Shown piece after piece: positions 7,265 to 55,900 of a DNA stretch of 64,000 bases. The notes under the pieces were generated by a model. It was given only the letters and a program-made list of their open reading frames with translations, was not told where the DNA came from and did not search any database. The position numbers and the translations under genes are program-made. Location: positions 5,270,001 to 5,334,000 of the forward strand of contig CM120646.1 in NCBI GenBank assembly GCA_051362555.1, given 5' to 3'. How positions within the stretch are numbered: the stretch's first letter is position 1; every line of letters starts with the position of its first letter. The DNA is from Lingula anatina. Its lineage: Eukaryota; Animalia; Brachiopoda.

Positions 7265-10200
7265 GTAAGTGTGATGTTGATCAATATTTAAAGTGTTGAT
7301 TTTGTATCTCTCTTGCTCTTTTTCCCCCCTTTTTTTTAGATAAGTCAGTTTCAGTTTTTCTACTGGCAGCAAATTTGAATATCCTTTTAAGCAAAAAGAA
7401 GACTAATTATGTGAATTAATAGCCACTAAATTACTGTTGCCATCAGATATCAATTTCGCCACCAAGTTTCAGTTTTGCTTTGATCCTCTAGGTTTATATT
7501 CAGTAAACTGTGAAGGTGCTCTATGGTTCCTCTAGTCTAGGCTGTTACATTTGCTAGTGTACATGAAGAATCTGCATATATCTTTTCCAAGAATTTGAAG
7601 ATGAAAAAGGGAAAGAATAAAAAGACAAGCAAGGTTAAAATCAGAACCTTTGAAAAGATATTTATGTTACCAGATCAATGTCTGTTAAGATCAATCTTCA
7701 GATTTTCAATTTTTTTTTAAATCTAGGATTTGTTCATTATGTGCTTGTGGAAAGAAGAGTCTACTAGGTCAGGGGGACTTAACACGCTATGAACCTACAC
7801 CAAATTTCAATCCTTTCAAAAAACAACTTGCCAAAGCTAATCGTAGAAGCTCTTCTGAGCTGGATGATCGTTCGGGAGAAAAGAGTCCAAAACATCTGAC
7901 ATGGCGGCGTGCTCGTGGGCCCTTAAAACCAGGAAGGTGGGTATCAATGACCCTTGTTTCAAAATTGGAATTAGATAGGCTAGTTTTTGAGCAAGAACCA
8001 GTACAACTCAGAATCTCAATATTATATATTTGAAGGACATAACTATACACACTTTTTGTAAAATTTTGAATTTTAGATCAAAGTTAAGCCTAGGACTGTT
8101 ACTGTATTTTTGTCTGTATTCAGTAACTTGGCCTTACACAGCGTTTATTTTTAACTTTGTATTGGAGGAATTCCATTACAAACTGAATTCGAAGAAACAT
8201 CTAAATTTACAAAAAAAAAAAAGAAAAAAAAAGAAAAAAACATCCTATTAATCTATTAAATCTATTCTCAATGGAAATCATTTTCAGAGAACGCAGTAAA
8301 TCCCCAAGACGGCCCAATCCTCACAGTATAACAGACGCTGATGGCCGCCCAATTGCCACAGTGGATGAACTGAACACAGTGGGATATCCAGAAGACACAG
8401 ACATACACAGGCTATTTGAACCCTCGGGTAATAATAATTGTTGTGAAAATTTGAGATTAAATCAGTGACTTAGCAGTGAAGATGACAAAAAAGATACAGG
8501 TTATAGTATAAGGCATGTGGCATGGTATTTAGGAGTTTAGAAGCCACTATTGAAATTGTTGAGTGTTTGTCAATGGTAACAATTGTCTTCCTTTGATATC
8601 AGGTCACACTTCTGCTCACCACTGTTGTGCCGCGTGGTCAGACGGTGTGATACAAGCTGAGGACTACACTCTACAATATGTGGACAAGGCTGTGTTTGCT
8701 GGAACCAGTCAGGTAATAGATATGTTGTTAGCTGGAACAAGTCAGATATTATAACAGATGTTGCTGGATGAGATTTTATATTGACTAACAAGGTGTTGGC
8801 AAATATTTGTCTTCTTGTATTTCCTTGTTTAATGCTAACCATCATGGTTTTTGTGAATAAAGGCTTAAGCATCAAGGTAGTTGCATCTGCTAGCAAAATG
8901 AATTGGCAGTTACTGTGAGATATATGTGATAATTGTTGTATTGTTTTATTAATATGATTTTTGTGCCTTTTTAATAGGCAGTCTATCGAAAATGATGCCA
9001 TATAAATATTATAATTTTTTTTCATCCCAGAAATGTGCCTACTGCAGAAAGTTTGGTGCCACTATCAACTGCCGCTACCAGAAGTGCAATAAGAAGTACC
9101 ACTACCCGTGTGCCTCAGGCGGAGGCTGCTTCCAAGACATCAAGACCCTGTCCCTGCTGTGTCCAGACCACACTGACCAGGCAGTGTCCATAGCTGGTCA
9201 GGAGGCTCTGTGTGTGGTGTGTGACCAGGCCGGGGATGTCCTGGAGCAGTTGTTTTGTACCAGCTGTGGCCAGCACTACCATGGGACTTGCCTGGATCCC
9301 CCAGTCCAGGTGAACCCCATTGTGAGGGCAGGATGGCAGTGCCCAGAGTGCAAGATATGCCAGACATGCAGGTAGAAATGTTATGATATATTGTTAGGAT
9401 CTTGAAACCCTTTAACTTTCGTTTTGAGGATTTTCTAAAAGAAAAATGGGAATGTGGGTGTTCAAAAATGGCGTGCATCTTCTCTTTGGAGGGTTGCTTT
9501 AAAAAAGTTTAAAAAAAATGCATGATGGTTGTCAAAATGTGATCTATAGCCAGGAAAATTGGTTGTCTCTTTTCTGTGGATTACTTTTAGAAAGAGAGAT
9601 ACAGAATGTGACTGCCAGTCAAATTTAAAATTCAGTTTTGAAGACTTCCCTAGCATATAGATGTGGTTCCCATAGATAATGTTCAGACATTTTTTTTTTA
9701 AACCCAGGCATGTGATGAGGAAATACAAATATCTAATGTCTGCATTTAAAATTGATTCCTAATGAATTATATTTTGTTGCCTAGGCAACCAGGGGATGAC
9801 AATAAGATGTTAGTCTGTGACACATGTGACAAGGGCTACCACACCTTCTGTCTCCGGCCAGTGATGACCACCATACCAAAGAATGGCTGGAAGTGTAAGG
9901 TAAGAGTGACCAGACCTTTCATGATGCCGATGACCCCTTGGTCCATGATATATAACACTAGATGCCCTTTAATCTGTTGCCGATGTTCGTTAGATATCTC
10001 AAAATGCAGTAGAAATGTTTGGCCTTGTGCATGCCCTTAATTTGCCTGTGACAAAGTGAAATGTGGATTATGCATAGCAGGTTTGCACCACACCTTGTTG
10101 ATGCTTTTGGAAGATCATTGCACATGCTACAAATTGTGTCAGTACATAAACTTTTTTCACGTTTGTTCATGTGTTAAGAAGAGTGAAATTTTTTTTGAGT

Positions 10201-13200
10201 GAACTTTCTTGGTTGTATTTGCATCTTTGTGTCGCAGTAGATGTGAGTAGTCTTTTTCATTTGTTTCACAGCGCCTTTCCAATTTCATTAATTCTTTTTA
10301 TTGTGGTTCTCCAGAACTGTCGCGTGTGTGGTGACTGTGGTTCCAGAACGCCAGGCAGCGGTCCCAGCTCCCGCTGGCATCTCAACTACTCCGTGTGCGA
10401 CAGCTGCTATCAGCAGAGAAACAAGGGTCTGTCGTGCCCAGTGTGCGGCAAAGCCTATAGGCAGTTTACGCAGAAAGCTATGGCACAGTGCAAGACTTGT
10501 AAGAAGTAAGTGCATTGGTGGCGTTGTTAGTATTGTGAAGTTGAATTATACATGTAGAGGAATGCAGAAAGCGATAACATATCGTGTATAACTTGATTCG
10601 GTACATAATTTCTATCTAGTGTAGCTGTGAAATATTCATACAGGTAGAAGAATATAATACAATTTACAGGCAGTTGATACAGAAGACTTCAATACAATTG
10701 TAAATGCTTTTGTCAAGAAGTACATAATTTCTGGTATTAAAATAAAATGAAATAAATACAAATAGAGGAATATAGTACAGTTCCTCAAATAACTGGCACA
10801 GTAAATCTTAGTATAGTGTGCAGTTGAATGGTTAGTTATAATAAGATTGTATTTATGCTAGGATGTAGTGTGTGACCTCTTCAAGGCAATTATTATGCAG
10901 ATAAAAGGGTATAGGAAGAATCAGCCCAGCTTACTTGAAATGTAGTTTAGGCAGTTTGTGATCTGCAATAAGTCAGTTATGGATGGTGTTGTAATTATAT
11001 GTAGATATTAAGTTGTATATTCTATGTAAGTGGTAACAGCAAGGAGAGTAATAAACTCAGAGGAACCAGTTGGAGATCATAATTTTTCCACAGGCAAAAC
11101 ATGATAAAAACTCACTTTTTCTAATGGTCGTTCTTTGTCCCTGTTACTGAAATTGACCACCAGGTGGTACAGTGGTCAGGACAACCCCCCTCCACTCTGC
11201 ACACTTTTAAACTAATAAAGTTTTTCATAAGCTTTCATAATAATTTACTTATGCACAAAATAAAAAAAAAATGGTCTTTGAAATGATGAATATTTCTGCT
11301 GAACTAAGACGTAAAATATAGAGAACTATTGTTTAGAATGAACTTTCATGAAACCATTTTTCCTTTATTCTCTTAAGAAGACCTGATTGTGTATTTCTAA
11401 TTTCATCTATTATTTCATTTTTTTTTCAAGTTTTTCCCCGTTGTATAGACTTTAAAGCAAGATAAAAATAAATTTAGAAAAGGAAAACATTGAAGCAACT
11501 TTGTAGACCACTCATTTCAAGGCTGCATAATTTAGATGCTGCTGGTAAGCAGATGTTACCACTAGCATCATCTTATAGATCAACCAGTTTGATAAATGTG
11601 ATTATTCAGGTGGCGTCCTGATTTTCAGACCTTTTAATCTGAAACAATCACATTCCTAGAAAGTAGCTCATGCATGGTGCATGATGTTACTGAGAAATCA
11701 TTCTCTGTTTCAGGTATGTTCACAACGACTGTGACAGCGCAGTGGACTTTGGAGCCTTTACTCCTCAGCAGCAGGCAGAGTATGTGTGCTCTGTTTGCAA
11801 AGACAGACCTCCAGACGATGTGCCGGTAAATACTGACATTTTAAACTTTTTCAATATAAGAGTAAATCATAACTATTTTACATAAGCTGGATTTTTTTTC
11901 TTCCAGCTTGTCTCAGATAGTTGTGTATTCAAATTCCAAGCTAATCAATGAACTTTTTTCTCAAGATTAGTCTGATTTTATGTTGAGATTACAATATCCA
12001 GTTATGAAGGTTTTGTATAAAGTTAACTTGAGTTATTTAATTAAAAAAACAAAAAATGAATTGTTGACAAAGAAAAACATATTCAAACATGTTAGACGCT
12101 ACTAGTCTGTCTGTATTTTTGACATGATGTAGCTGGTAGGCGTAAATGTCAACATAGGTCTGTATTAGAAATGTGACTGATTGCAGAGAATAAGAACATA
12201 TGAAGAACTAAATATCCTCATTTTCCAAGCCTGTCCAGAAATGCAAAAAAAGGTGCGGGTTGTGATAAAGATGATAAATTCTTCCACTTTTATCCTTAGA
12301 TTTGGATATGAAACATGTATCTTATGGTGGTCATTGGAATTGCTTGTAACATTGAATTTAATTGACCTATTTTTCCAGATGGAGACCAACCTGACTGAGA
12401 GTCTGAACAGTATGATTGAGGAGACAGACCTGGTGGACATGCAGGACTTCAGTATATTTCAACGTAAGTTCAACTCCACTTTAATTAAGAGGCATATCAT
12501 GGGTATTAGACGTTTTTAAAATGTACGTACAAAATTTAAATTTCTAAAAATATTTGCAATTTTTCCTTTATCAATAAGGTAGGCCCAGCCCAGAAATGTT
12601 GAGGAAATTATTATTAAGTATTATTATTGTTATCAATTCCAGAGACAGAGGGGTCAGTCAATGAGGAGAGCCTGCAGGAGGCAGACCTGCAGAGTTCCCA
12701 GGAGTCCCTGCTGCTGGATGATAACTCCATGTCCAGTATGGACATTGATCTCAACGTGCTGGAGAAGGTGAGGAACTTTGTTATATATCAAAGTTTGATG
12801 CGTATGATATCCAGAGAGTTTTACACCTATGTCAGGCTGTTGACAGCTTTTCTGTGGTTCACCTGCTCACTACAAAAATAGATAAATGAATAATAATGAT
12901 AAAAGAAATATATATATATGAAATAGAATGGGTACATGAATGATTGGGTGAATAAATACATTAATGAATATACCAAGTAAATAAACAAATTTAAATTTTA
13001 TAAAAAAAAGGTGAATATGTTTATGGAAAATTAAAAAAAGATATGCTGAGAAATAACTAGATTTTCCAAGTCCTATAGTCTCAGTGCCTGAACCATCTTA
13101 TCTTGTAGGGGGCAGCACAGTTAGCACAGTTAACCAATCAGCAGTCCCCTCATCTGTCCGCCATGTTGAAAAGTGGCTCTGGGGCAGTGGCGGCAGCTTC

Positions 13201-16200
13201 CAAGATAGCAGGTCCTGGCAAGGGGAAGCCGTCTTCTGTAGGGAAGAAGAAAGTTCCCAGCACGACCACTGGGAGAGCCAGAGTATGAAGATATTAATCT
13301 TGTTTTATGTTATATTATCTTGTCAATGAGAATATATACACCATTTGTGACAGTGGAATATTAAGCAGAAATACCCAAGTTCTTTCTGTATTTGTATAGC
13401 ATCCAAACTTTATATTATAAAAGCTGTAGAACATAGCTATAAATGAATTTGTCTGTTTGTATTCCTTTGTTCTGAATGAACCTTTTAAAATATAGATTGA
13501 CAATTATCTCATCTAGAAGAAACAGAATAATGAATGACTTTCTGTTTTGGAAAACGCCTCCAACATAAAATATTCACTTGATTTCTGTTACATAGGGCTT
13601 GGCCCCATATAAATTCTCACTTATGTTAATGTTTTGAAATGCTCATGAAACTTAAGTCTTAAATGTATTAATTTTTTGTTTCAGAGCACTGGTAAAAAGG
13701 CCCAGAAGCGCCCCACTGGGACAGGGGAAAAGAAACGTCCGGCGGTGAAGTTAAAAAACAAAGGTGGTGGCGGGGGTGGTGCCAGCAGTGGTGCCAGTGG
13801 AGGACAGGCGGCAGCTAGCACCACTCAGGTATGGGACAGTGTTCAAAAAGAGAAAAAAAAAATTGGATTTGAAAAATGTTTATCTTAACAAATCTTTAAA
13901 TTTTGATGTGTAGCTTAGCAGTATGTGCTTTCATTTATAATTTTTAATATTCAATATGCATTGCAGTTGTCTGTGGCCATGGTTATCTTCTGGTTAATAA
14001 AATTAACAACTAGAACACCACATTAAAGAAACAAAAGGTTCTTAACATGTGTATATTGATTTGACTAAGAATTTCCAACTTTTTCAGTAGATTGTATAGC
14101 ATTATGTAACCACTGTATTTTTGAGACAGAGAAAAGGCCAGTAAAAAATTTTAAGATCCCCCAACTATTTTTTTCTCCCTGGTCTTCTTCCAGGTGAGCG
14201 CCTCCTCTAACACAGACAGTGGAAAGGAGGATGACCATCACTCCACTGTGGTGGTGTGCTCCAAGGATGATGACTATGTACTCAAACAGGTATGTGATCA
14301 CAGCACTCGGTCTCACGGTTTTGATATGCTAAAGAAATGTATGATGTAATATTCTTTTTTCCAAATCTTTTCATTGGTTTCACTCAGAATTTTCTTTAGG
14401 GTAAATAAATTCTACTATATTGTTTGGGTAAAATAGTTTTAAACTAGGGATAGCCTGTATATTTATTCTTGTATACTGAAAAGGTTGAATTTTTTTAATC
14501 TAAAAACAATTGTATTTATCAGCAAAAATGTTCATTAGCTTGGTAGTTGGATCATAAATGAAAATTATCAAACACAAGTAAAAAAACTTTCATAACTGTT
14601 TTATACATAAAATTCTATTTCTATTCAGGATATGTGTTATAGCTGTGGTAGCTATGGTAAAGGAGATGAAGGCAAACTGATAGTGTGTACACAGTGTGGA
14701 CAGTGCTACCACTCTTACTGTGTGCAGATCAGGGTGAGTTTGACTTTATTTATTTGTTTGTTTATATGACCATTTATTTGATTACCTGATATATGATATT
14801 TAAATGGTTAATTAATTTTTTTGGGCATCTGTTTTTTTTTTTTTTCCTAAAAGAAATGTTGTCTTCTTGAATAACTCTGGTATTCCTTACAATATTACAA
14901 TACCCGTCTGAATTGTTGACTGTAGCTGAAATTCAGGCAGAAAATAAGATCCTTCGAAGAATATGGCGATTTTAAAACTTTGCCTTTTAATATTTTGCTG
15001 TGTTAATCCAGCCTACACAGGTAGTATTAAAGAAGGGCTGGCGTTGTCTAGACTGCACCGTGTGTGAGGGTTGTGGGAAGCCACATGACGAGGGACGTCT
15101 CCTTCTTTGTGATGATTGCGACATCAGCTATCACATCTACTGCTTAGACCCCCCTCTGGATCATGTGCCCAAGGGGAACTGGAAGTGTAAATGGTGAGTT
15201 ACTGGACCCCAGAATTGTTGAAATTTGTATCCCCCCCAGTACATGTGCACTTGTGTGCATGAGTCTAGTTATTTCTATATTGTTGATATAATTCTGTTGC
15301 CTTTGTAGAAGTAATGTTATTATCATCCAGTATTAAATGCCTATGCAGTGAGAATATAATGTCACTTAACTGTAGGACATTTGACACATTTGGAATCATG
15401 TTGTGTGTGTGAGTGAGTGAGTTCTCTCTCTCTCTCTCTCACACATATATTTACTTTTTTTTCCTGTCCATTCCAGGTGTGTTATCTGTTACACCTGTGG
15501 CTCCACCACCCCAGGATATGGTGGTCAGTGGCAGAGTAACTACACCCAGTGTGGACCGTGTCATAGCCTGACCGCGTGTCCAGTGTGCAAGAAACATTAC
15601 AAGGAGGAGGAACTCATTATACAGTGCTGTCACTGCGACAGGTAGTGTATTATGAATATGTTGCATTAGTTATCCAGTTGTACTTTATATACATATCAAA
15701 GTTATAAAATAAGATATGTGCATGTTGGACATGGAATGTCTATACCTATTGAAGTGCAATCTTAACTGAAATTAGAAAAGCTCTATTACATATATCCCAA
15801 ACAAAAGTGTTGATTGTTTCTCCCACCAGGTGGCTACACAGTATTTGCGATGGAATGAAGAATGAGGATGATACGGAAAGGGCAGCGGATGCAGGTTATC
15901 ACTGTCTTATGTGCAGACCTAAAACTGGGGCGCCGCCGCCTCCTCGTAAGTGGACACACTATGTTAAAACTGTCACTAACTATTAATAAATCAAAATTTC
16001 ATTTAAAAAAAAAATTCAATCAAAAAAAAATCATCATCTACTGTTAAATACACTAAATGTAGCCTTCACCAGTCAGATTGCCACTGAAAATGTATTTGTG
16101 TCAGTAGAAATGCAGAACACTTAATTTGATCTAATTGAAGTGCCATTTGAATATATCTGGTTTTAGCATCTTCATCATTGTCTGTCCTGCTACCTGCACA

Positions 16201-19600: not shown

Positions 19601-22600
19601 TGTTTACATTGTTTTAATTGTCCTTCAGTGGTCAGTTTAGCCCAGGCTTTGCAGGGGGTCCAGCCACCCCCCAGTGGCCCCACCTTCCAGGTGACGACTT
19701 CGAACCAGACAGCGCCTCGCAGAACAAGCGCAACTTGGCCAAATGGGAGCATGATGAGCCAATGGGAGACAAGGCGACTATTACACCGGTCCTGTACTGC
19801 AACATCATGCACCCTGAGCTGAAGACGCAGTACCCTGAGTGGTCGGAGAGGATTAAACAGATCACTAAACTGTGGAGAAAGGTCCCAACAGAGGAGAAGC
19901 AGCCATATTTGGTAAGTCGTTATTGTTGATGAATAATTGTCTGTGTGATATGAAGGCTGTGCCTTTCCATAGGTCTATTGAAATATGGTAATTATATCAA
20001 TTACACTGTTTTACCTGAAAAAAGATTGGGGTCTAAACTTAAAATGATGTTATTAACAAGTGATGCATGAAAATCCTTACAATATCTGGATTACAATTTA
20101 TGCCAAATTGATTTTATATCCAACAGCAAAAAGCCCGAGAGAACAGAGCCAGCAGTCGACTCTCCAAAGCCCAGAAGGTAAAAAATGTCAGTATCACTTT
20201 TCTTCACTTCTGCATGATTTTTATGTTTTTGTTGATTCTTGGCACTTCAGTCACACGTGCTGGTATTTTGTTAGAGTGTTTAAGATTGTGTAACTTGGAG
20301 GCTTAACATCAGAATAATTTTATATTAAGAATGCATTTGAGTTACTGTTGTTCAATCCACGCTTTTTGCTCTAACTGAAATTAAACATTAAATTTGCACT
20401 GTTCTTTCTTGACTGTTTTAGTTTGTTTTAATTTGTGAACTTATCACTTTGATGATGCTAATAATCTTTGCCACATGTTTTTGCTAATTAAAAAAACACA
20501 ATATGGTATTTGTACTAGCCCACTTTCTAAAAATTCTCACACCTCTTCTCCTACTTCAGATACAGGACATCAGGAAGAAGCAGCAGGACCCCTCAGCTGC
20601 AGGAGGGATGCCACCCCCTGGTATGCCTCCCCCTCCCCCAGGGATGCCACCCACGGGCATGCTCCCTCCCCCACCCCCGCCCCACCCCCAGGCTCATGTG
20701 CCGGGGCCGAAGAGCCAGGAGCAGTTGGAGAGGGAGCAGAAGTTTCAGGAGCAGGAGAGGCAGTGGAAGCTGCTGCAGCAGATCCGGGCACAGGAGAGGA
20801 AGATGGAGTTGGAAGCCCTGAACTCGGACAGTCCACGTGGGTCCATGACTCCTGGGAGTACACAGGGTATGTTCTAGCACTATTTTAAGTATTGAAACTG
20901 GTGCTCATGACTCATAATTGTGAAAGAGTTTTTGACCACTACCCATACCCTTGGATCACTTTGATGTATGATATTGATGATGTTATTTTGTGGTCAGGAA
21001 TGCCGTTTACTAAATTATGATACGCTTTCATGTGTAAGTTAGTGGTTAATTCTCTTTGAGACCAGAAAGTAATTAGATATTCGAAAGATGATTACTGTAA
21101 GACTGTATTGGATTTGGATTAGATAATGATAGATTGAAGATTGTGAAGCATTGTAGCATCAAATGTAGTCTGTACAGTCTGGGCAATGTGTTCATGAAAT
21201 CTGTGGCTGATATTTTAGGTTCACCACACCCCAGCACTCCAGAGAGCCAAGGTGTGCCCCCATTTGGGCCCCAACAACAGCAACAACAGCCTCCACCCCA
21301 GCAGCAGCAGTGGGACCCTTACGCCATGCCCCCAGGGACACCCAGACCAGGTAGTCAAGATGGAGGGAACGCCAATAAGCCAGACAACTTAAACAACCAG
21401 CCAGGGGCCTCTCCCCAGTACTCTCAGTCTCAAATGGGAATGCCCCCAGGAAGGCCTGGAGAACAGAGAATGCCCCCTGACCCATACAGCCAACCCCCAG
21501 GGACCCCACAACCTGGTGGGCCACATCCGGGCCAGGGGAGGCCACAAGAGGGGTATCCAGGCCCCCCGCCACAGCAAGCCCTCAAGGGCATGCCTGATCC
21601 GTATGCCCAGCCCCCTCACACACCAAGACCCCCAGGACCTGAGGACCCATATGCCAGACAGCCAATGACACCAAGACCACAACAACAGCAGCAGCAGCAC
21701 CCTATGGCTCCTCACATGCAGGGCCCACCACATCCAGGCCATGGCCTGCCCCCAGGGCACCAGCAGGGCCCTAGACCAGGAGTACCTTACAGCCAGGCCC
21801 AGGGTATGCCTCCACACCCAGGGGATCCCTTCAATAGACCCCCTGGTGGGCCTAGACCCCCTCATGAAGTGTGGCATGGGCCCCACCCTGGGATGCCCCA
21901 CCCCTACAGCCAGGCAGGGGCAGTACCACACCCAACCAGCCCCAGAGAGTTTCGGCTACCAGGGCCCGGCATGATACGCCCCAAGGAGGGAGGGTACGGA
22001 CAGGGTGGCATGACGCCCACTCCGCGTCCCCCTACCAGTGGTCAGAACAGTCAGCTGCAGCAGATGCTGTCCACCGCGCCCAGGTTTGCTGACCCCAACC
22101 TCCAGGGACTGGACCCCAGCACGTCCACTGCAGTCGTAAGTCATCCTGAGAGTGGTACTGTTCTTAATCGCTAACGACTGCTCTTTATACTTGCTGCAGT
22201 TAATAACTTTTTCTCTCTGGTCATCGGAAAAGTGATGCTTCATAGGCATGGTGACATTATTTCATGTCTCTGCAAATTGTAGGATATCATGGCCTTTCTT
22301 GATTATTTGAAAGGATTCTTTAAAAATTCCATTTCATTATTTGTATCAAAATGCATTCATTACATTAAGAAAATTTACGGCAAGAATCTTAACAGGGGGG
22401 GTTAATACTCTCAAATTTACATTGCCGTATGAAGTGTCACTTTGCAGGTGACCTGCTGGGGTGTTTGTCCAGTGATGGTCAGGCTTTGTCCACTTCTGGT
22501 CAGACATAAACAGCAGCAGAGCCTTAATGTGTGCCCAGTCTGTAACCTAGAGGTGGTCAGTAACTTGTAGAATCGTGTGAACTACTGGTTTAGCAGTGGG

Positions 22601-25600: not shown

Positions 25601-28600
25601 CAGCTTTTAAGTAGTCTTTTTAAATTCTTCCAGGTTCACAAGGTCAAATGTCAGTATCCCAAGGTCAGATGCCAGTATCCCAAGGTCAGATGCCAGGCCC
25701 CCAAGGTCAGATGCCAGGCCCTCAAGGTCAGATATCAGGTCCTCAAGGACAGATGCCTGGTCCTCAAGGACAGATGCCTGGTCCTCAAGGACAGATGCCT
25801 GGTCCTCAAGGACAGATGCCTGGTCCTCAAGGTCAAATACCTGGTCCTCAAGGTCAAATGCCAGGTCCTCAAGGCCAGATGCAAAGGCCTCAAGGTCAAA
25901 TGCCAATACCTCAGGGTCAGATGCCAGGTCAGATATCCGGCATGCCTAGGCCCCCACCCCCAGGGTATCCAGGTGCTCAGTTTGGCCCACGTGGACCCCA
26001 GGGAGAGGGGGGCTGGCAGGAACAAATGATGAGACCACCACACCCTGGACAAATAAGACCAGGTGAGTAGCCTCTACAGTTGATTATATATTTCAAGTTA
26101 TATATCCCAGCTTGTAGAAAATTACATTTCTTTTTGTCTATTCATCTACTAAGAAAAATGGAATATTATAAACAAGCCAGCCTTATAGGCTCAGTTTTTT
26201 GCCATGGTAATTATTTAGGTTATAGCTTATTGTATATAAGAATGATGTGACTAGAAATTTGCACCTTCCATCTTGCAAGAAATCTAGATGATGGCACTTT
26301 TTCAAATGGGATTAATCAATTTATTTTGTACAATTCAAGGTAGATAGCTAATTGATGTAAAGAAGTAAGGCATTAAATAAGATAACTTTTATATTACTTT
26401 TATTTGTATTGATTTTGTTATTAATACTATTATTTCATTTATGTAATTTTGATGTGGATTTGTGTGTTCCAGATATGGAAGGTTTTGGCCCCAGGGGTCC
26501 CCAGGGGGAGGTGATGAGAGGTCCAGGTCCTGAGATGATGAGACCAGGGTACCCAGGTCAGTGGAGGATGACACCCCCTGGAATGCAGGGACCCATGCCA
26601 CCCCATGGTGGACCCTATCCACAGGGACAGTATCCCCCAGGGTTTAACCCCAGACACCCGGGACAGCCCCCATGGGAGTTCCATCCTCAACATGTAAGTT
26701 GTGTTGGTACAGTGTTGTAGGAGAGTATTTTTTAACTCTCGTGGTATTATAGATTTTTCCTCCATAAAATTGAATTCTGTAGACACTGAAGGGAGTTCAC
26801 TGTAAAGCTGTGCTTTGCATTGTGTTTTCTAAAGACAGTTTCGATTTCGCTAAAAAAAATAATTAGCATAATGTACATCTATATTTTTCTATCATTTCTC
26901 ATATAATAGTCACCCTAAATGAATGAAATTTGTTATCTAGATGACGCCAGCTGAACAACACAGGACACCATATTTGAAGATGTTTCAGGAGAGACTGAGG
27001 CAAACACAGTTACAAGCTGCCCAACAGCAACAACAATTACAGCAGCAGCAACAACAACAACAGCAACAACAACAACAACAGCAACAGCAGCAACAACAAG
27101 GAACTCCTGGGACACCCCCTCACACCTCGGGGAATCCTCTAGACCCCTATGACCACCTGGTGCGGCAGAAGATGCAGGGAACACCCCCTGCAGTAGGTGA
27201 AGCAAGGGTACCACCACACCCGCCTTCTAGACCCTCAAGTCAGCAGGCTTCACCCAGGGGGACACCCTACTCTACACCTCCTACAACTCCTCACCCGGGT
27301 CAGTCTACACCATCTGCCAATCACGGACAGCAAGGTCAAAGTCTGCAAAGTCAAGGACAGTCAGGTCAAGGTCAGGCAAGTCAAGGTCAGGCTTTACAAG
27401 ATCAAGATCAGATGACGCAAGGCCAGAGTCAGCAAGGGCAGAAAAAAGATGGATTAGATGAGTTACTGCGTAAGTATGAAATCAGTTAATGAAATTTTTG
27501 TTGAAAAGATTTGAAAGACATCAAACAGGAAGTTAACAATCACACTAGAATATAACATTATAATGTTTCAGTTCACAGTCTATTGTAATGCATGGAAAAT
27601 TTAATAATTTTTTTTAACTTTTTCAGCTTCAGATAACCTGAATCTATCAGATTACTCTGACCCTGAGATCCAGAGGGCGCTTTCAGAGGCCCAAGACAAG
27701 ACCATCTTTGATGAACACCTAGGTCTCAGAGAAGATGCAGAGAAATCTGCTGCAGAAGAAACCTCTGGAAGAGTGGGTGCGTTCCAGGCACAGTTCCTGG
27801 AGTTCAGTAAAAAGAACAGTAATAAGGAGAGTGAGGGAAATGTGGAAGATTCTGTAGGGCAAGAAATGCCAGGAGATAAAGCATCACCAGTTGCTGATGT
27901 GGGGAGCCAGGAGCAGATTGCAGGAGGCGAGCCTAGTTCTGCTGATGCAGATAAGCCACCTGAGACTGAACCTTCTGAGGCTTCTGAAAGCACACAGTGC
28001 CCAGACGGACATAACTGTCCTGGAGATGAAAATGGCCCTGCCACTAATTCTGGTGCTGGACAATGCCCAGATGGACATAACTGTCCTGGAGATGAAAATG
28101 TCCCTGCCACTAATTCTGGTGCTGGACAATGCCCAGATGGACATAACTGTCCTGGAGATGAAAATGTCCCTGCCACTAATTCTGGTGCTGGACAATGCCC
28201 AGATGGACATAACTGTCCTGGAGATGAAAATGACCCCACCACTAATTCCGGGGCTGGACAGTGCCCAGATGGACATAACTGTCCTGGAGATGAAAATGAC
28301 CCCACCACTAATTCCGGGGCTGGACAGTGCCCAGACGGACATAACTGTCCTGGAGATGAAAATGACCCCACTACAAATTCTGGTTCTGGACAGTGCCCAG
28401 ATGGACATAACTGTCCGGGTGATGAAAATGACCCCACCACAAATGCTGGGGCTGGACAGTGCCCAGACGGACATAACTGTCCTGGAGATGAAAATGACCC
28501 CACTACAAATTCTGGTTCTGGACAGTGCCCAGATGGACATAACTGTCCTGGAGATGAAAATGACCCCACTACAAATTCTGGTTCTGGACAGTGCCCAGAT

Positions 28601-31600
28601 GGACATAACTGTCCGGGTGATGAAAATGACCCCACCACAAATGCTGGGGCTGGACAGTGTCCAGATGGACATAACTGTCCGGGTGATGAAAATGACCCTA
28701 TCACAAATTCCGGACCTGGACTATGCCCAGACGGACATAACTGTCCTGGAGATGAAAATGACCCCACCACAAATGCCGGGTCTGGACAGTGCCCAGATGG
28801 ACATAACTGTCCTGGAGATGAAAATGACCCCACCAAAAATGTTGGGGCTGGACAGTGCCCAGATGGACATAACTGTCCAGGGGATGAAAATGACCCCACC
28901 ACTAATTCTGGTTCTGGACAGTGCCCAGATGGACATAACTGTCCTGGAGATGAAAATGACCCCACCACAAATTCTGGGGCTGGACAGTGCCCAGATGGAC
29001 ATAACTGTCCTGGAGATGAAAACGACCCCACCACAAATTCTGGGGCTGGACAGTGCCCAGATGGACATAACTGTCCTGGAGATGAAAATGACCCCACCAC
29101 TAGTTCTGGTGCTGGAACATGTCCAGATGGACATAACTGTCCTGGAGATGAAAATGAGCCCACCACTAATTCTGGTTCTGGACAGTGCCCAGACGGACAT
29201 AACTGCCCTGGAGATGAAAATGACCCCACCACAAATGTTGGGGCTGGACAGTGCCCAGATGGACATAACTGTCCTGGTGATGAAAATGACCCTACCACAA
29301 ATTCTGGTTCTGGACAGTGCCCAGATGGACATAACTGTCCTGGAGATGAAAATGACCCCACCACAAATGCCGGGTCTGGACAGTGCCCAGACGGACATAA
29401 TTGTCCAGGGGATGAAAATGAACCCACCACAAATTCTGAGGCTGGACAGTGCCCAGATGGACATAACTGTCCTGGAGATGAAAACGACCCTGTTACTTCT
29501 GCTAGTAGTCAATCCAATACCACTTTAACTTCCACAGTGCCAACTAGTGACCAGCATGTGAGTCCAGGCCCACATGAAGCTGCCCCTTCCTCCACCACAA
29601 CCTCAGCTACAGCTGTAGATGCCCAGTCAGCCACTGGTGTCTCTGATACTGCAATACCTGTGGCTGGTGGTGCAGAACCAATGCCAGGTAGCAATGTACC
29701 AATACCAGCAGCTCCAGTATCCATGCCACAAGCCACAGTTTCCATGCCATGTGTTCCAGAGGTCTCACAGATTGGCCATTCACCTATGTCAGCTTCCTCA
29801 CAAGGTGCCCAATTAACAACACCTTCTGGTGCACCGGTTAATACAGAGGCACAACATGCCATCCAAGCTACCATTGCCAGCACTGTGTCTGCACCTGCAA
29901 GTATGGAAACAACAAGTTCTCCTGCTGTACAGACAACTGCATCTACTACAGAGCATGTCGCTCAGCCTGTGGTGACTAATATGCCACCATCTATACAACC
30001 TGTGGTGCCCTCTATGGGCCAGGTAGAACACCCGGGGGGAAGTGAGGTGAAGGTTGAGCCACAAGGGCCTACAGCAGTCGGTGAACAGGTAGTGCCAGGG
30101 CAAGCTAGTGAGGAACCGGGACAGATAGAACAGAAAGTAGCTTCAGGAACTGAGATACAAAAATATATAAAGACGGAAGCAGACTTGACTGTACCTCAGA
30201 CATGCCAGGAAGAGACTAAACCACCACCAGCCCTAGCTGTTGCCACAACACCTCATTCAGCTGTACCAAATACCACACATCCTCCGATGCCATCTGCTGT
30301 TGCAATCTCTGGATCTGCTGGCACCAAGCCTACAACCAATGACATGATGTCATCTCTAGCTGGCATGATGCCCACCACACCTGGCATGATGCCAGCCTCA
30401 AATACTTCAATGTCCATGGCTACTGGCATGATGCCCTCTTCAGGTGCAGGGCCTACTTCAGTTGGTATGCCAACCAGTGCAGCACAGGGTATGCATATGG
30501 TAACAGCTCACCAACAGTATGGCATGCCACATTCTAGCATGCCACACACCAGTATGCCACATACCACAGCGAGAGCATCTACGCCACAGTCTGCTGCAAG
30601 CCAGCCTCCAACTGTCCAATCCATGCCAGGTATGCCACCACTGTCCATGATGCAGGGGATGCCAAGACCTGGCATGCCAGTGGCAACATCTGGCATGGGA
30701 GCCACTCCTCATCCTGGCATGGGCCCTGGCATGCACTTCCCTCCTGGGATGAGACCCAGAATGATGCCCCCAGGTATGCATCATCAGCCAGGACCCCCCT
30801 TTCCGCCCCACCCAGGACAGTCCAGGATGCCAGGGTCAGGCATGGTGCCTCCAACATCTGGCATGGTACCTCCAACATCTGGCATGGTGCCTCCAGGCCA
30901 GCAGCCACAGTTCAGTCCACAGATGCCAGGTGGCATGGGAGCACCAAGGAAAGACAAGCCAGTGCTGCTTGAAGAACAACCGTTATTACTACAAGAATTG
31001 CTTGAACAGGTGGGTTGATTTATAGTCAATGTCTGTCACTTGTGTATAATTTGTTGTAGTAGGTTGGTGAGCTTTTGTGTATGTGGTTGCATTAAACTTT
31101 TATAATAGAGGCCACAAAGCCGATTTATCAGTAGCATTTAGTTTTGTGTCATGCTGCTTTGCTGATAATAGATTAAAGATAACCAGCCATCTTCCTCTTA
31201 TTGTACAATGAAAGTGTTAAATGTGTTGTATCTATCTTGCACTTTGTTGCTATGATAGAGCTACTTTTGAGTATATTCACACACGTCCTCCATCTTGCTC
31301 TTTCTTGACAGGAGAGACGGGACCAGCAGAAGCAGGCGGAGCAGCAGGTGTTGATACAGAAGAGGGACAGCGGATTGATGTCCGACGCAGAGTTTGAGAA
31401 ACGCAGGGCTGAGTTGGCCATCACTGAGAGCAGGCGGCCCCCCATGCCAGGACCTAGAATGCCAGGCATGGGCATGGAAGGGATGCCAAGGTATGATGGG
31501 TAATTTCTGGCATGGGATTGTGGTGTAACCGCTGCATCATATTCTTTGAAGATTAAAACTGAGAAACATTTAAGGAACTGTTGTGGTTCATTATAAGTCA

Positions 31601-49900: not shown

Positions 49901-52900
49901 TCCCTGGACGAGGATGATGTGATGTTCTGTAGCATGAACTGTTATATGCAGTTTGCCCTCAGTCATAGGACCTCTGCCGGGACAGCAGAGTCTAAGGTAT
50001 GTAGTAGTCCAGATGAAATATGGAGAAATGCTGTCATTCTTTGAGTTTTTAATTTTAGATAATATAATAATGTTAACATAATTTTTTTTTTCAGGTTTTA
50101 ATACAATATTTAAGAGAAGTTGAAGCTTTTTTGGTGTCTCTTCATTACTTTTCAGATAGAATGATAAGTTATTTTAGTTTAAGTTATTTAACCAAATACC
50201 TAGTTTGCTGTGAACTTTTTGAAAATAATTAAATTATAAAGGATATCTTGCATTTGACAAATAACATTTCATCTTCACGTAATGATAGATAATTTACTGA
50301 CAGCTGAAATAGTTCACATTAAAACAACATGCAACATGTAGTCTAGATGGGTACTGATATGAAGCGTTTGGTTTTAGGAGGCAAGTGACGTAGTCGAGTA
50401 CAAAAGCTCCTCTGCAGTTCAAGATGACGCCAAGCTTCCACCTCCCAGCATCCCAGCCTCTCTCTCAGTGTCACTAACAGAATCGGGAACTGGGGTGGTC
50501 ATCAAGAAGGATGTGAAAGCTTTAAAACACCGGCGGTCAAGCAGTAGTCTGGACGGTGTGCCTGCTACACCAAAGGTTGGTTTTTGTTCTAATAAAATGT
50601 GCTTTTGTTAAGTTTTGATAATATAAAACAGACCTAGTGATATATTTGTTTTCTTCAGATTTTGTTTATTGTGCCTTATCGCTATTTACTTGCTTGCTTT
50701 AACATGCGAAAGAAAGTGTATGGGAAAGTACAGAACAGTTGCATTAATGTGTTAAATTTGAATCCTGTAATTCAACATTTTTACGAGATTTTTTTATAAT
50801 GACGAATTGAATGTGTACAGACACCATAGCTGAAGAAAAACAAATAAGGTCATGCCTTAATTTTCTAATGCACCGTGACATTATGAAATATTTCCTGTAT
50901 TTCCAGCCTTTGGAGAAGAAATGGCGTGGCAAGTGCTACAAACATTGGGAACCTAAGATGGTGCCCAAGGCACAAGCCTACACACCTCCATCTGATGAAG
51001 AGCTCACCAAGCTGATCAGGAAAATTGCACTGGCTTTGGTCCCCAACCCAGTTCCCGAGGACACCAGGAAGTGTGCTTTTTGCCATGAAAAGGGGGAGGG
51101 AGAGACGGACGGCCCAGGAAGGTGAGAGAACAAATGAGTTTTGTTTTTGTTTTATCATAGCTTTGACTTGAGAGGTTACCAAAACATTGAGAGTCATCAG
51201 TGACATGAGTTGGACTAAATGCATTGATTAACAGATAGGCCATAATAAGTGAATAAATGTTGAATAGTTGAATGTTTGAAATGAAAGATGGTAATTTTTC
51301 TATTTATTGTAGCTTCCTTAGCATGTCACTAAAATGAATGAATAGATATATATATATATCAGGGACAAGATACCTGTCCAAGTGAATCAAAACTAAATGC
51401 ATATTTGTATTATCCGTTACTGTAGACTTCTTAACCTGGACACAGACAAGTGGTCGCACCTGAACTGTGCACTCTGGTCGCACGAGGTCTACGAAACGTG
51501 CGCGGGTGCTCTAATCAACGTGGATGCCTCACTGAAGCGCGGAATGACATTGGAGTGCGTGCTGTGTAAGAGGAGCGGGGCGACACTGGGATGTTTCAAG
51601 GTGCGATGTACCAACATCTACCATGTTGGGTGTGCTCAGAAAGATGGTTGTGTCTTCTTCCAAGATAAGGTGAGCTGGACTTTTCGTTTACATCTGGGGT
51701 TTTTATGTTTTACTGTCATTTTATGTGAGGGAGGGGGACCTCACATGGGGACAGGCCCAGCACATAGCCAGAGATAGGGCCAAATGGAAAGAAGTGACTG
51801 TGGCCTTATGTCCCACGCGGGACGAAGAGCAATGATGATTATGTGATTAACAGGAGCTTCACTTATCAGAAAGTGTATCAAAAAAAGTTCATTATTAATT
51901 GAAAATTATTTATAATTATTTATTTTGTTCTGTATTGTTTAAGTAACAGTGAAGTTAGCTTGCTAGTGTCAAGTTTTTCTAAAAGTAGCTGCTTAGTGAA
52001 GTGTTCTCCCAGTGCCATTAAATTAAACTTCATATCAGTACATGTCTGTGTTTCTAGAATGTACAACACTAATGGACTTCACATACAAGTTATTTTGGAT
52101 TTCAGACAATCTTATGTCCAGTTCACAAGCCTAAGGGGGTGATAGAGGGGGAACTGAAGGATCTCACAGTTTTCAGGAGAGTGTATATACAAAGGGAAGA
52201 GAGCAAACAAGTGGCTAGGTAGGTACCCCCCCCCCCCCCCCCCCATCATGTCACTGTTGTAGTAAAGACTAAAAAACATGTCAGAATTTTATGTTACTAA
52301 AAAAACTCTAATTGAACAGGTATTGCCTGAATGTCTTAACATCTCCAACATTTCAAATATGGCGGTACAATGTATATACTGCTGAAATATTAAACTTGGC
52401 AAGACAGTAATAATGCTGCTTATACTATTGTAATACAAAGATGAATACATAATGTACAAAAAATTTTGAAACTATGACCTCAGCTTATATCTCATGTTTT
52501 TCTGATTATATATGGTGCTTCTAGTAACTCCTATTGTGCCTTAACAAACTCGTTGCTTACTGTGCTTTAGAAACTATAAAGACATAATATGGGAAAAACT
52601 GATTGGGAATTCTTTGTCAGTTATGTGTAATGTCACTATATGATTGTTATAGAGACATAACAATCATCAATGCAGTGTTGTTCATGTAACTCAATTATTT
52701 TGGGACTGAAAACTTTGTTCAGTTTATCAAAATTTTTAAGTTGACAGTGTCCATAAACTTGAGCTAAACCAGAGCTGTAATTTGTTCTTTCTTGTGATAT
52801 AAATCAAATTTCAAGGTAACAAGTTACTTGGAGCCCCGTGTATACCCTGATAACATGTAAATTGGGCATAATTACATTTTTAATTTTATTTAATGTATCA

Positions 52901-55900
52901 TTTGAGTAAAATTTGTTGAAAAAAAAATAGAATGTCTAAGTGAATCTTTTATCTAAATTTTGAAGCACAGGCTTGTTACATAATTTTACTGTTTTGTAAG
53001 GTGTTGTTTGTTAGTTCTGCAGCAATGCTCTCCATTGGTCTCCATTGTTTTTCTTCTCATCAGTAGTCACAGGTTTCAACAGGCATTATATCTTTGTGCT
53101 ACAGCTTGCTGGCTTAAGCTTCTAAAAACTGACTGATATCTTGAAATCTGCTAAGAAGCTATTAATTAAAAACCTCACCCCAACCTCCTTATAAGAATAT
53201 GAAATAAGGGAGAAGTCCCTCAAAATTTTGAAACTTGGAATTTATAAATACAGCCAGTAAGGTTGTGGTTTTTGAGGGTAACCACTGAGCTCTACCTATA
53301 TACAATTTTGTAATACTGAATTCTATTAAACTGGGATTTAATGGGCAAACTAACTTTCAAAATATAAACATCCTGATTATCTGTTTTTAACTATGAAAAT
53401 ACCAGATTACTTCCTGTTACTGTTCACAAATTGATTGGTTGGTTGGTTGATCGGTTGGATGATTGAATGAGGGGTTAGGTGGGTGGTTTGTTGGTTGATT
53501 GGTTGGATGGATGGTTGGTTGGATGGTTGAATGAGGGGTTGGATGGGTGGTTGATTGGATGGATGGCAGGTTGGTTGGTTGGTTGGATGGATGGTTGATT
53601 GAGAATGGATAATCATGGGTGACACAAACCACTTCAATAATAACTGCCTATAAGTGTATAATGGACAGGGGTTCTTCAGACATTTAAATCCATAAACTTC
53701 TGTGTGTGTATATATATATATAAATATATCATACTCATGTATTGCATACAGGTGGCCGGTGCATCACCGCTTTCTGTCTGCTGCTAGCTGCTAACTAATC
53801 ATTAACATGGCCGGACCACTTTTCACCATTCAGCTTTTCCAGGATCGTTCACCGCCAGGATACCCAGCATGCTGTGCGTATCGGCTCTTTAATTCTTCAC
53901 AGCGTAGGTCAGCTGCTGCCCCACCAGATAGCGAGTGGGAAGTTCCACACGCGGGACACTATATATCCTGTAAGTATTTGGGCTTCAACACTTACAAATA
54001 TCTGGATATATCTTTTACTTTGATATTGAGAATTGACCATTTCTAAGGAATTGTTTTAATTACTGAAACAGTGACAAGTAGAAAGAAAGTAGTAAAGTAT
54101 CAATTAAACGGTGCATTTTGCATTATGGATAAAAGCAACGAAATTTATTCTTATTTACTCATTCAGACATCATCTAAATGACAGTGAAAATTCCTGTTTA
54201 CCCTTCTCCCTTTGTTGGATGTGGTAGAGTTTTGTTATGATATAGATATTTACCCATGGTTTCCTTTCCTGCCAGGTTGGATTCCGTATCACCAGGTTCT
54301 ACTGGAGCATGCACCACCTGAAGAAACGCTGCAAATACATGTGCAGCATCTCCGACAAAGACGGGCATCCCGAGTTTGAGGTCAAGGTCATGGAAGAGGG
54401 AATGCCAGAGGTCGCTTTCAAAGAGGCCACGCCAAAGGGTAAATAAAGCCTACAAGATCCCCTATTTTGCTAACCAACTTTATTCAGTACTATGAATTTC
54501 TTAAAATAAATTTATTAGTCAAGATTGTAAAAATTGGCCAAAAAAAAAAAAAAGAGTTAATTTTAGTCCTTTTTAATTGACATCCACAAATTAGGTAGTG
54601 GGAAAAGACTGTCATTCAGATTCTTAAACAACTAAGATTATTGGCTATTTGGTTTCATGGGAATGGAGTTAAACTGTTGGAAAATAGTTAACATAAGTTT
54701 TCCTACTTAATGTGTATGTACCCCCTACTTATGTAAATTACATCTAGAAATTCTTAAGTAGCTTAGAATTTGTTAATAATTGAATTTGCTCATAAAACCT
54801 CTCAATATTTCCACAGAGGCGTGGATGCACCTGCTGACACCTATGGAGAAGATGAGGAGGGACGCCGACCTCGTCAAGATGTTCCCTGCTTATATGGATG
54901 GAGAAGATCTGTTTGGACTTCATGAACCAATCATTGTGCAGCTTATAGAGTCTGTAAGTCATATAGTTGGGACAGGATTCTTAAACAGTACATTATAACC
55001 AAATGCCACTGAAATAATTTTTTATGAAAGAGTCTATGAATCAGATATATGTGATTGGCCCTAGTTTTATTTGTAGCATGCTGTTTTTACCTTAAACTGT
55101 TCAGTGTAAGGGCATGACACCGAAATGGGTTTTCCTACATAGAATATAACTTGACATTTAACTTCCTGTGTTGCTAATATTCAGATAGTAAAAAAAGACA
55201 AAATTTTTTCCAGTGATTAGTAATCCGATTGAACATAAATTTGGTGCTTCTCATGCCAACATTTTAATAATTTTTATGTTTCTTTTTTCATCCCCCCTTC
55301 AGCTCCCGGGCACAGATCTGCTGCATAACTACAGTTTTAAGTTTGGCCGCAGCCCTCTGATAGAGATGCCTCTGGCCATTAACCCCACTGGCTGTGCCAG
55401 ATCAGAACCCAAACTCAGGACACACTTCAGGAGGTACGTTGAAAATCACGATGAAAATTTCTTTAAATAACAAAACTTGGGCCCTTTTCACATTTTAGGT
55501 AGTTTTTTTTTTTCTACCGCACCATTTTGACTGGACTTAAATCACTCTGCCAAATCACTCTCCCAAACTTCTTCAATTTTTGACATTTCATAAGAGAATA
55601 TAATATATGATTTGATAAAATATAAATGAGACCTTGTTTTTTTTTTTTAGACCTCATACATTCCACAGCAGCAATACCCAATTTTTTACATTAGATGAGA
55701 GAAAATAATCTGTAATAATGTTTTTTTAATGTTGTTTGTTTTAGACCTCATACCCTCCACAGCAGTAAAACTCACTCCCTCCCCAGTACAGTGACCGGAG
55801 TGACCAGTGAGGTGGACTCTCCATACTTCAAACAGTTTGTCCACTCCAAGTCTCAGCAGTACAGAAGGATGAAGACAGAGTGGAGAAGCTTGGTTTACCT

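Follow-up and report, generated by a model that had tools for sequence, protein, structure and literature searches.

A constrained Cys/His repeat array in the KMT2C/D gene of Lingula anatina and its relatives in invertebrate HCF-1 proteins

We analyzed a 64,000-nucleotide stretch of the genome of the brachiopod Lingula anatina (assembly GCA_051362555.1, contig CM120646.1, positions 5,270,001 to 5,334,000, forward strand), referred to here as the window, with positions counted from its first nucleotide. A giant exon of a KMT2C/D methyltransferase gene in this window carries, in frame, 23 tandem copies of a unit with Cys, His and acidic residues. The array is real, under selection and expressed, and it represents an HCF-1-type Cys/His module, for which we found no prior description, that has been installed in KMT2C; what it may do in this protein is judged from sequence.

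Tandem Repeats Finder placed a 66-bp tandem repeat at 27994-29490 (22.7 copies, 91% matches, 0% indels, score 2355). Translated in the open frame 27608-31018, the repeat reads CPDGHNCPG 23 times and amounts to 499 amino acids (aa) with 46 Cys and 23 His, which confirms a preliminary description of this DNA that had reported 23 phased in-frame 66-bp units and about 500 aa with these numbers of Cys and His. The array and its surroundings are laid out as follows:

27995..29491, + strand: Cys/His repeat array, 23 units of 66 bp, the last (unit 23) partial, encoding a unit of 22 residues.
26941..27469, + strand: Q-rich coding exon upstream (sequence; RNA depth over the part examined).
27470..27626, + strand: GT..AG intron of 157 nt before the giant exon (five junction reads in run X7, one of four runs; phase check).
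27627..31009, + strand: giant coding exon of 3,383 nt with the array (acceptor from spliced reads; donor and phase from sequence; RNA depth stops at 31009).

A core of 12 residues has the same amino acids in 23/23 units, and the synonymous codon variants that had been listed for it were found in the alignment. Within this core P3, G5, H6, D11 and E12 (numbered along the unit) are fixed at the DNA level as well. Amino acid changes sit solely in the flanking Q and in the linker, as had also been claimed, and linker P15 and G22 keep their amino acid across the 22 complete units. Pairs of units are ~90% alike on average, three pairs are identical, and 19 of the 22 units are distinct. The phase of the 157-nt intron sets the array in the Cys/His frame, and splice phases on both sides of the exon agree with that frame. 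Two more stop-free frames were observed over the array, 27858-29528 (+ strand, 556 aa) and 27652-29508 (- strand, 618 aa). We rejected the shifted + frame, in which only 6/22 residues are fixed, and also the antisense frame, which has its wobble positions in common with the coding frame, while RNA strand and splicing favor the Cys/His frame. Both extra frames behave as shadows of the Cys/His coding frame.

Comparison of alleles within the array revealed that its two parts evolve differently. When each distinct allele in the 22 complete units was counted once against the majority codon, the core had 9 synonymous and 0 non-synonymous alleles and the linker 7 and 16, respectively (Fisher P = 0.0008), with a linker omega of ~0.8. 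The probability that 9/9 core alleles would be synonymous was 3e-7 to 1e-5 (transition/transversion weights 1-8), although repeat units share history and are not independent, so that these P values are indicative. Synonymous divergence per site was 0.255 for the core and 0.243 for the linker, in effect the same, so that stronger homogenization of the core does not account for the difference. Purifying selection acts on the core peptide and the linker drifts neutrally, and the selection on the Cys/His core proposed in the preliminary description is thus borne out.

RNA reads were mapped onto two stretches holding one repeat unit each, with eight of nine listed runs used, and RNA from 8/8 runs covered the 66-bp unit. 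In the first stretch (53 reads, four runs) the junction 27469-27627 was observed in one of four runs (five reads) and head-to-tail 66-nt joints in 4/4, and the three stranded runs all indicated the + strand. Six reads of run X1 crossed from the unit into unique downstream exon sequence. The second stretch (265 reads from four further runs) had coverage on this exon and on the one after it, with empty intron bins, and RNA depth in the bin with the last unit was 5-17x the exon mean. For run X7, depth on unit 1 was only about flank level at a 90% threshold, its reads being mostly 90-95% alike; X8 and X9, which come from the same study, gave 13x and 17x depth at an 85% threshold. The array is therefore transcribed, in frame and retained in the mRNA, and it is neither spliced out nor an assembly artefact, the two outcomes that the preliminary description had asked RNA to decide. 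Most reads of X7-X9 matched the window at 90-99% and differed from it at many fixed sites (29447-31560, 27110-28060), which suggests a divergent population behind them; according to four reads of X9, the second unit position, a variable one, would be Leu (C-L-D-G).

Searches for relatives of the motif led to HCF-1. A scan of metagenome contigs gave nine pattern matches, one of which was a confirmed locus (L001): its positions 441-1100 represent an intron-containing animal gene with 11 units of a ten-residue motif followed by E or D, with periods of 17-30 and very different linkers, and its last unit equals the majority core of the window at 34/36 bases. A profile of the KMT2C and L001 arrays, the type of search for a donor family that had been suggested, gave 16 protein matches among 7,984 scored. 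Thirteen of these come from bivalves and have the Kelch and FN3 domains of HCF-1, another two, both unnamed fragments, contain the same repeat, and one is unrelated (E 0.34). The bivalve repeat lies in the mid-region of HCF-1 and has 3-19 copies, a period of mostly 14-24 residues, free linkers and a constant core. Counting from the first Cys, Asp3 occurs in all 183 bivalve units of a set that includes isoforms (C..G..C with at least 6/10 core matches); 180 of them have His5, 180 have Asn6 and 181 have Pro8. The majority units of the window and of bivalve HCF-1 are identical at 10/13 residues, and units of Mytilus carry the likeness further, over a 17-residue sequence; the random expectation of ten fixed positions is ~8e-13 per site. 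Copy number is not the same in all HCF-1 records from oysters (12-13 in P0045, 3 in P0050/P0051), owing to allelic variation, splicing or annotation.

A search of 1.84 billion representatives, which were clustered at 50% so that members are hidden and absences mean little, returned 69 matches, ten with arrays of the motif family. Three of the ten are fragments of bivalve type. Two have the form CDG[VI]HGCPG, namely HCF-1 of the snail Nucella and a similar unnamed fragment, and two, HCF-1 from the spiders Trichonephila and Caerostris, have the form CxDG[IMV]HCGTDD. The last three, Pomacea LOC112558296 (P0087/P0154), P0098 and P0089, are long low-complexity proteins without HCF domains that have the spider form. 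Most of the remaining 59 matches read as extracellular CPxGxYCP repeats. The three proteins without HCF domains have 11-27 copies of CxDG[IK]HCGTDD and agree with spider HCF-1 at 11-13/13 residues, and P0098 also has IPPLRIRM and LKLVLRK motifs; their flanks gave no similarity by which to assign them to KMT2C. Over all carriers, 281/285 units have a His inside the C-x5-C/Asp-Gly core, at position 4, 5 or 6 by lineage, compared to four such matches in 84,671 residues of other stored proteins. Units of Potamilus represent intermediates (CTDGHHC, CTDGLHC).

Several searches were negative. No array protein of 1,989-5,000 aa was found at E 0.001 among 7,990 scored candidates, which is weak evidence. 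Viral contigs gave four pattern matches, none of them confirmed, and so no support for a viral carrier, and prokaryote genomes gave 11 matches, including one weak single copy in a sigma-factor-like open reading frame that we took as chance. The PDB sequence search returned two weak unrelated matches with the array and none with the profile, and in the ESM Atlas the oyster array reached at most 0.76 and the Pomacea protein had no usable match. No Pfam family fits the Cys/His motif; the sole results for the array were a Lustrin score that is a sum and a TGF_beta_GS match below threshold. The Lustrin cysteine-rich domain (PF14625) was rejected as a sum over repeats: the whole array scored 29.3 bits (cut-off 27), no single stretch passes, and only positions 23-38 of 46 align. 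Literature searches yielded nothing for GHNCPG, DGIHCG, the Pomacea accessions or such a repeat; subscription journals, figures and supplements (e.g., alignments of invertebrate HCF-1) lie outside these searches, and a published alignment showing the HCF-1 repeat may exist. Of the lineage-specific module proposed in the preliminary description, the motif itself must be given up as such, as it occurs in bivalve, gastropod and spider HCF-1, and only the KMT2C array is left: the motif appears to be old, and its array in KMT2C looks, tentatively, lineage-specific.

In 7/7 HCF-1 proteins examined, the array lies at the boundary between basic and acidic regions, with the upstream part less purely basic in the spider. 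The PRO repeats of vertebrate HCF-1 and the Taspase1 site of fly HCF are located at this boundary, according to the available text of 10.1101/577890 and PMC4840301. Sites of the form [QE][FILVM]DG were found in 8/15 HCF-1-type proteins, one or two in each and all within the array. One array linker of HCF-1 from mussels, oysters and pearl oyster, not scallops, contains DEVDG (P0038, P0042-P0047, P0088), apparently a Taspase1 site in degenerate form. QFDGAGD and QFDGACD occupy a similar place in the array of P0048, an unnamed fragment. The DEVDG linker also matches the caspase-3 site DEVD-G.

The host of the Lingula array is a complete KMT2C/D (MLL3/4, Trr/Lpt) gene. With Pfam, 9/10 exon-sized stretches scanned matched PHD, extended PHD, HMG, FYRN, FYRC or SET, in the KMT2C/D order of N-terminal PHD clusters, HMG box, extended PHD, FYRN, FYRC and SET, and full-length shark KMT2C is collinear with the window over 7725-57354:

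7725..15938, + strand: exons of the N-terminal PHD finger clusters of KMT2C/D (Pfam, shark alignment).
19660..19911, + strand: HMG-box exon (Pfam, shark alignment).
30959..31009, + strand: conserved KMT2C anchor of 17 residues (matches shark KMT2C near residue 2849).
50958..57354, + strand: exons of the extended PHD, FYRN, FYRC, SET and C-terminus (Pfam, shark alignment).

Invertebrates have a single pro-orthologue of KMT2C and KMT2D. In a search of proteins of 199-2,000 aa, the closest named matches of one PHD exon were from Capitella (79%), with Helobdella and Ptychodera next (74%). The HMG box and the anchor, LEEQPLLLQ(D/E)LLEQ, bracket the array, and between them shark KMT2C (1,110 residues, 8 Cys) has no such Cys/His motif; the claim that vertebrate KMT2C/D has no such module thus stands for the one full-length vertebrate KMT2C checked. 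Downstream of the array the giant exon encodes S/T/A/P-rich and M/P/G-rich low-complexity sequence. The gene has further coding repeats, namely a 21-bp unit of the GQMPGPQ type in ~14 copies, a run of polyglutamine and a 24-bp unit of the MMPQ type (25630-25930, 27022-27099, 34899-35067), and its introns have 2.5 copies of a 159-bp repeat, a TTGG run and four copies of a 74-bp repeat (36782-37174, 53431-53601, 56011-56305).

We hypothesize, as a tentative first choice among several explanations, that this transcribed, in-frame, 23-copy array of constrained HCF-1-type Cys-x-Asp-Gly-His-Asn-Cys units forms zinc knuckles that would give KMT2C a multivalent, HCF-1-like docking patch. Cysteines in the nucleus are reduced, and the two Cys and one His of each unit would probably bind Zn2+ there, with a fourth ligand supplied perhaps by an acidic residue, by an adjacent unit or by a partner; the turn would come from the invariant Asp-Gly. 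The units might just as well as not be independent, like beads on a string, and bind by avidity to a partner of the HCF-1 array or to other such arrays. The unit, we think with slightly more confidence, would have been copied into a tolerant disordered exon from Lingula's own HCF-1 or from a third carrier and amplified by unequal crossing-over. That the modules are short and independent is suggested by fixed cores on free, neutral linkers of varied length. The occurrence of Cys-His-Cys within seven residues, with the position of the His shifting, fits metal ligands, and the case for metal binding, a plausible prediction, is strengthened by the fact that C, H, C and D are conserved between species. 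A metal buffer would not require the constraint that is also seen on Asp, Gly, Asn, Pro, Gly and the acidic tail and that is in keeping with a shaped binding surface, and the shared lineage-variable residues favor copying from bivalve-form HCF-1. KMT2C and HCF-1 are both chromatin regulators, and HCF-1 recruits KMT2A/B and KMT2F/G (PMC5870349, available text).

A number of points weigh against a docking patch derived from HCF-1. KMT2C/D is not named among the HCF-1 partners in the available text of PMC5870349. Position 2 is Pro in the KMT2C core and Thr in 171/183 bivalve units, and in the profile test of L001 as HCF-1, which failed, 157/1000 shuffles scored as high. Spider HCF-1 agrees with the snail non-HCF protein at 11/13 positions and snail HCF-1 has a third form, and this crosswise spread of variants also fits an old motif scattered over nuclear proteins, or convergence. 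Two AlphaFold2 runs were uninformative, with a mean predicted local distance difference test (pLDDT) of 36.5 and 42.2 and no confident fold; zinc, partner and fold are predictions, as is the array protein itself, whose sequence is deduced from the mRNA frame. The putative donor is proposed from a comparison with HCF-1 of other animals.

The position of the HCF-1 array, in 7/7 proteins, where vertebrates have PRO repeats and the fly a Taspase1 site raises a different explanation, which we consider unlikely: that the unit is a signal for proteolytic maturation, with the Asp-Gly or a modified neighbour being cut, and KMT2C cleaved like HCF-1 or MLL1. Such a role would fit the confinement of every [QE][FILVM]DG site of the 15 HCF-1-type proteins to the array, including QFDGAGD in P0048, and the constancy of Asp-Gly in all three variants of the motif. 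However, the consensus residues of Taspase1 are missing, the exon has no Q[FILVM]DG, and no Cys-Glu, the site of OGT cleavage, occurs in the array. It also counts against cleavage that Asp-Gly is a common turn and that KMT2C/D is not known to be cleaved.

Equally unlikely in our judgement is that no copying from HCF-1 took place, and that the KMT2C array is the expansion of a resident copy of an old protostome linear motif of several nuclear proteins, or the result of convergence on one partner. This explanation would account for the CxDGxHCGTDD arrays of the three non-HCF low-complexity proteins, Pomacea LOC112558296, P0098 and P0089, the first of which has a layout like that of the window exon (array, S/T-rich, P/M/H-rich) and may be a snail KMT2C exon. 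Yet the flanks of these three proteins have no similarity to KMT2C, no array protein of 1,989-5,000 aa was among the 7,990 scored (a weak point), and the 1,110 residues of shark KMT2C have none. The lineage-variable H-N-C-P-G, in addition, is common to the window and bivalve HCF-1, which convergence does not require.

A lineage-specific, metallothionein-like buffer for metals or sensor of redox state, to which H3K4me1 activity or condensates would be tuned, seems quite improbable. Purifying selection on the 46 Cys and 23 His of a nuclear region that is disordered, together with the very acidic tails, would suit it, but the motif is not lineage-specific, and a buffer needs only Cys and His, whereas fixation extends to Asp, Gly, Asn, Pro, Gly, Asp and Glu in the window and nearly so across bivalves; a low-abundance chromatin enzyme would also be a poor bulk buffer. 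A neutral coding minisatellite or an assembly artefact is largely refuted, for although units are ~90% alike with three identical pairs, linkers are neutral and oyster copy number is 3 or 12-13, RNA with head-to-tail joints comes from the 8/8 runs, 19/22 units are distinct, and the core is selected and conserved across molluscs.

The finding that bivalve, snail and spider HCF-1 have a conserved Cys/His array where vertebrates have OGT-cleaved PRO repeats is new; in the available text of the HCF-1 papers, the invertebrate boundary is described as a Taspase1 site or as being without an evident site. The invertebrate array is a candidate precursor or analogue of the PRO repeat, which the available text of PMC4840301 (section 13) presents as vertebrate-only, with no related cellular sequence and a possible viral source. 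Also new is that an enhancer methyltransferase has acquired the same module and, under selection, now has it amplified 23-fold, which points to a functional motif that is exchangeable among chromatin regulators via disordered exons. If its binding target were found, this would establish a new short module for interaction and a possible control of KMT2C in the manner of HCF-1. A bolder view, which we regard as rather unlikely, is that an ancient Cys/His micro-module moved more than once between chromatin regulators (the bivalve form in HCF-1 and KMT2C, the spider form in HCF-1 and a snail nuclear protein); as a zinc-dependent tether or processing signal it would plug KMT2C/COMPASS into the HCF-1 machinery, and it would be the cellular forerunner of the vertebrate PRO repeat.

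Among known systems, the Ephrin_rec_like or GCC2-GCC3 repeats (PF07699) have the C-x-x-G-x-x-C-P spacing in common with the array. In those repeats an aromatic residue precedes the second Cys in 88% of 1,140 units, compared to 0/267 in the motif family, Asp3 occurs in 2%, and there are further cysteines and a secreted context that the KMT2C array is missing. We rejected the array as a repeat of this type on the aromatic residue, Asp3, the extra Cys and the lack of a PF07699 match, and the preliminary description was right to call the likeness to CPxGxYCP repeats only loose, as the defining residues are missing. Cys2His zinc knuckles and zinc clasps (e.g., the C-x-H-x-x-C segment of RING and the CD4/CD8-Lck clasp) are familiar motifs that likewise have three potential ligands in seven residues and need a fourth from elsewhere; the KMT2C motif matches no Cys2His knuckle in Pfam or PDB, and its metal binding is predicted.

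The Taspase1 sites of MLL1/MLL2, TFIIA and fly HCF share the Asp-Gly pair and occur in KMT2-family proteins and in HCF. The Taspase1 consensus has Q at P3, a hydrophobic residue (I/L/V) at P2 and Asp at P3'/P4' (PMC3102056, available text). Taspase-like sites sit within some HCF-1 arrays but not in the KMT2C array, which has no DEVDG either, and the KMT2C unit was rejected as a Taspase1 site: it reads C-P-D-G, has Asn/Cys at P3'/P4', and its exon contains no Q[FILVM]DG. Two Cys, a His and acidic residues are present both in the KMT2C unit and in the HCF-1PRO repeat. The HCF-1PRO repeat, which is cleaved by OGT, is likewise tandem with Cys, His, acidic residues and a Thr-containing tail, and occupies the same basic/acidic boundary as the invertebrate HCF-1 relatives of the motif (PMC4840301, PMC4549301 and PMC5493779, available text). 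Its cleavage region is P7-P8-C9-E10, with Glu right after Cys (PMC4549301 and PMC5493779, available text). This P-P-C-E region is not in the KMT2C array, where 0 Cys-Glu pairs occur, and the KMT2C unit was rejected as a PRO repeat on both counts. In the PDB sequence search with bivalve HCF-1 or the profile, no link to a PRO peptide was found at E up to 10. The conserved Thr-rich region of the HCF-1PRO repeat binds the OGT TPRs. T-T-N is present in the KMT2C linker, but this Thr tail is short and neutral, and the linker differs in other species.

The invertebrate HCF-1 mid-region repeat shares with the KMT2C array a C-x5-C core with Asp-Gly and His (23/23 KMT2C units), an acidic tail, the tandem arrangement and free linkers. 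The KMT2C array differs in its KMT2C/D host, in having Pro for Thr at position 2, in its strict 22-residue period and in its 23 copies versus 3-19. Overall, both arrays are found in a disordered region of a chromatin regulator.

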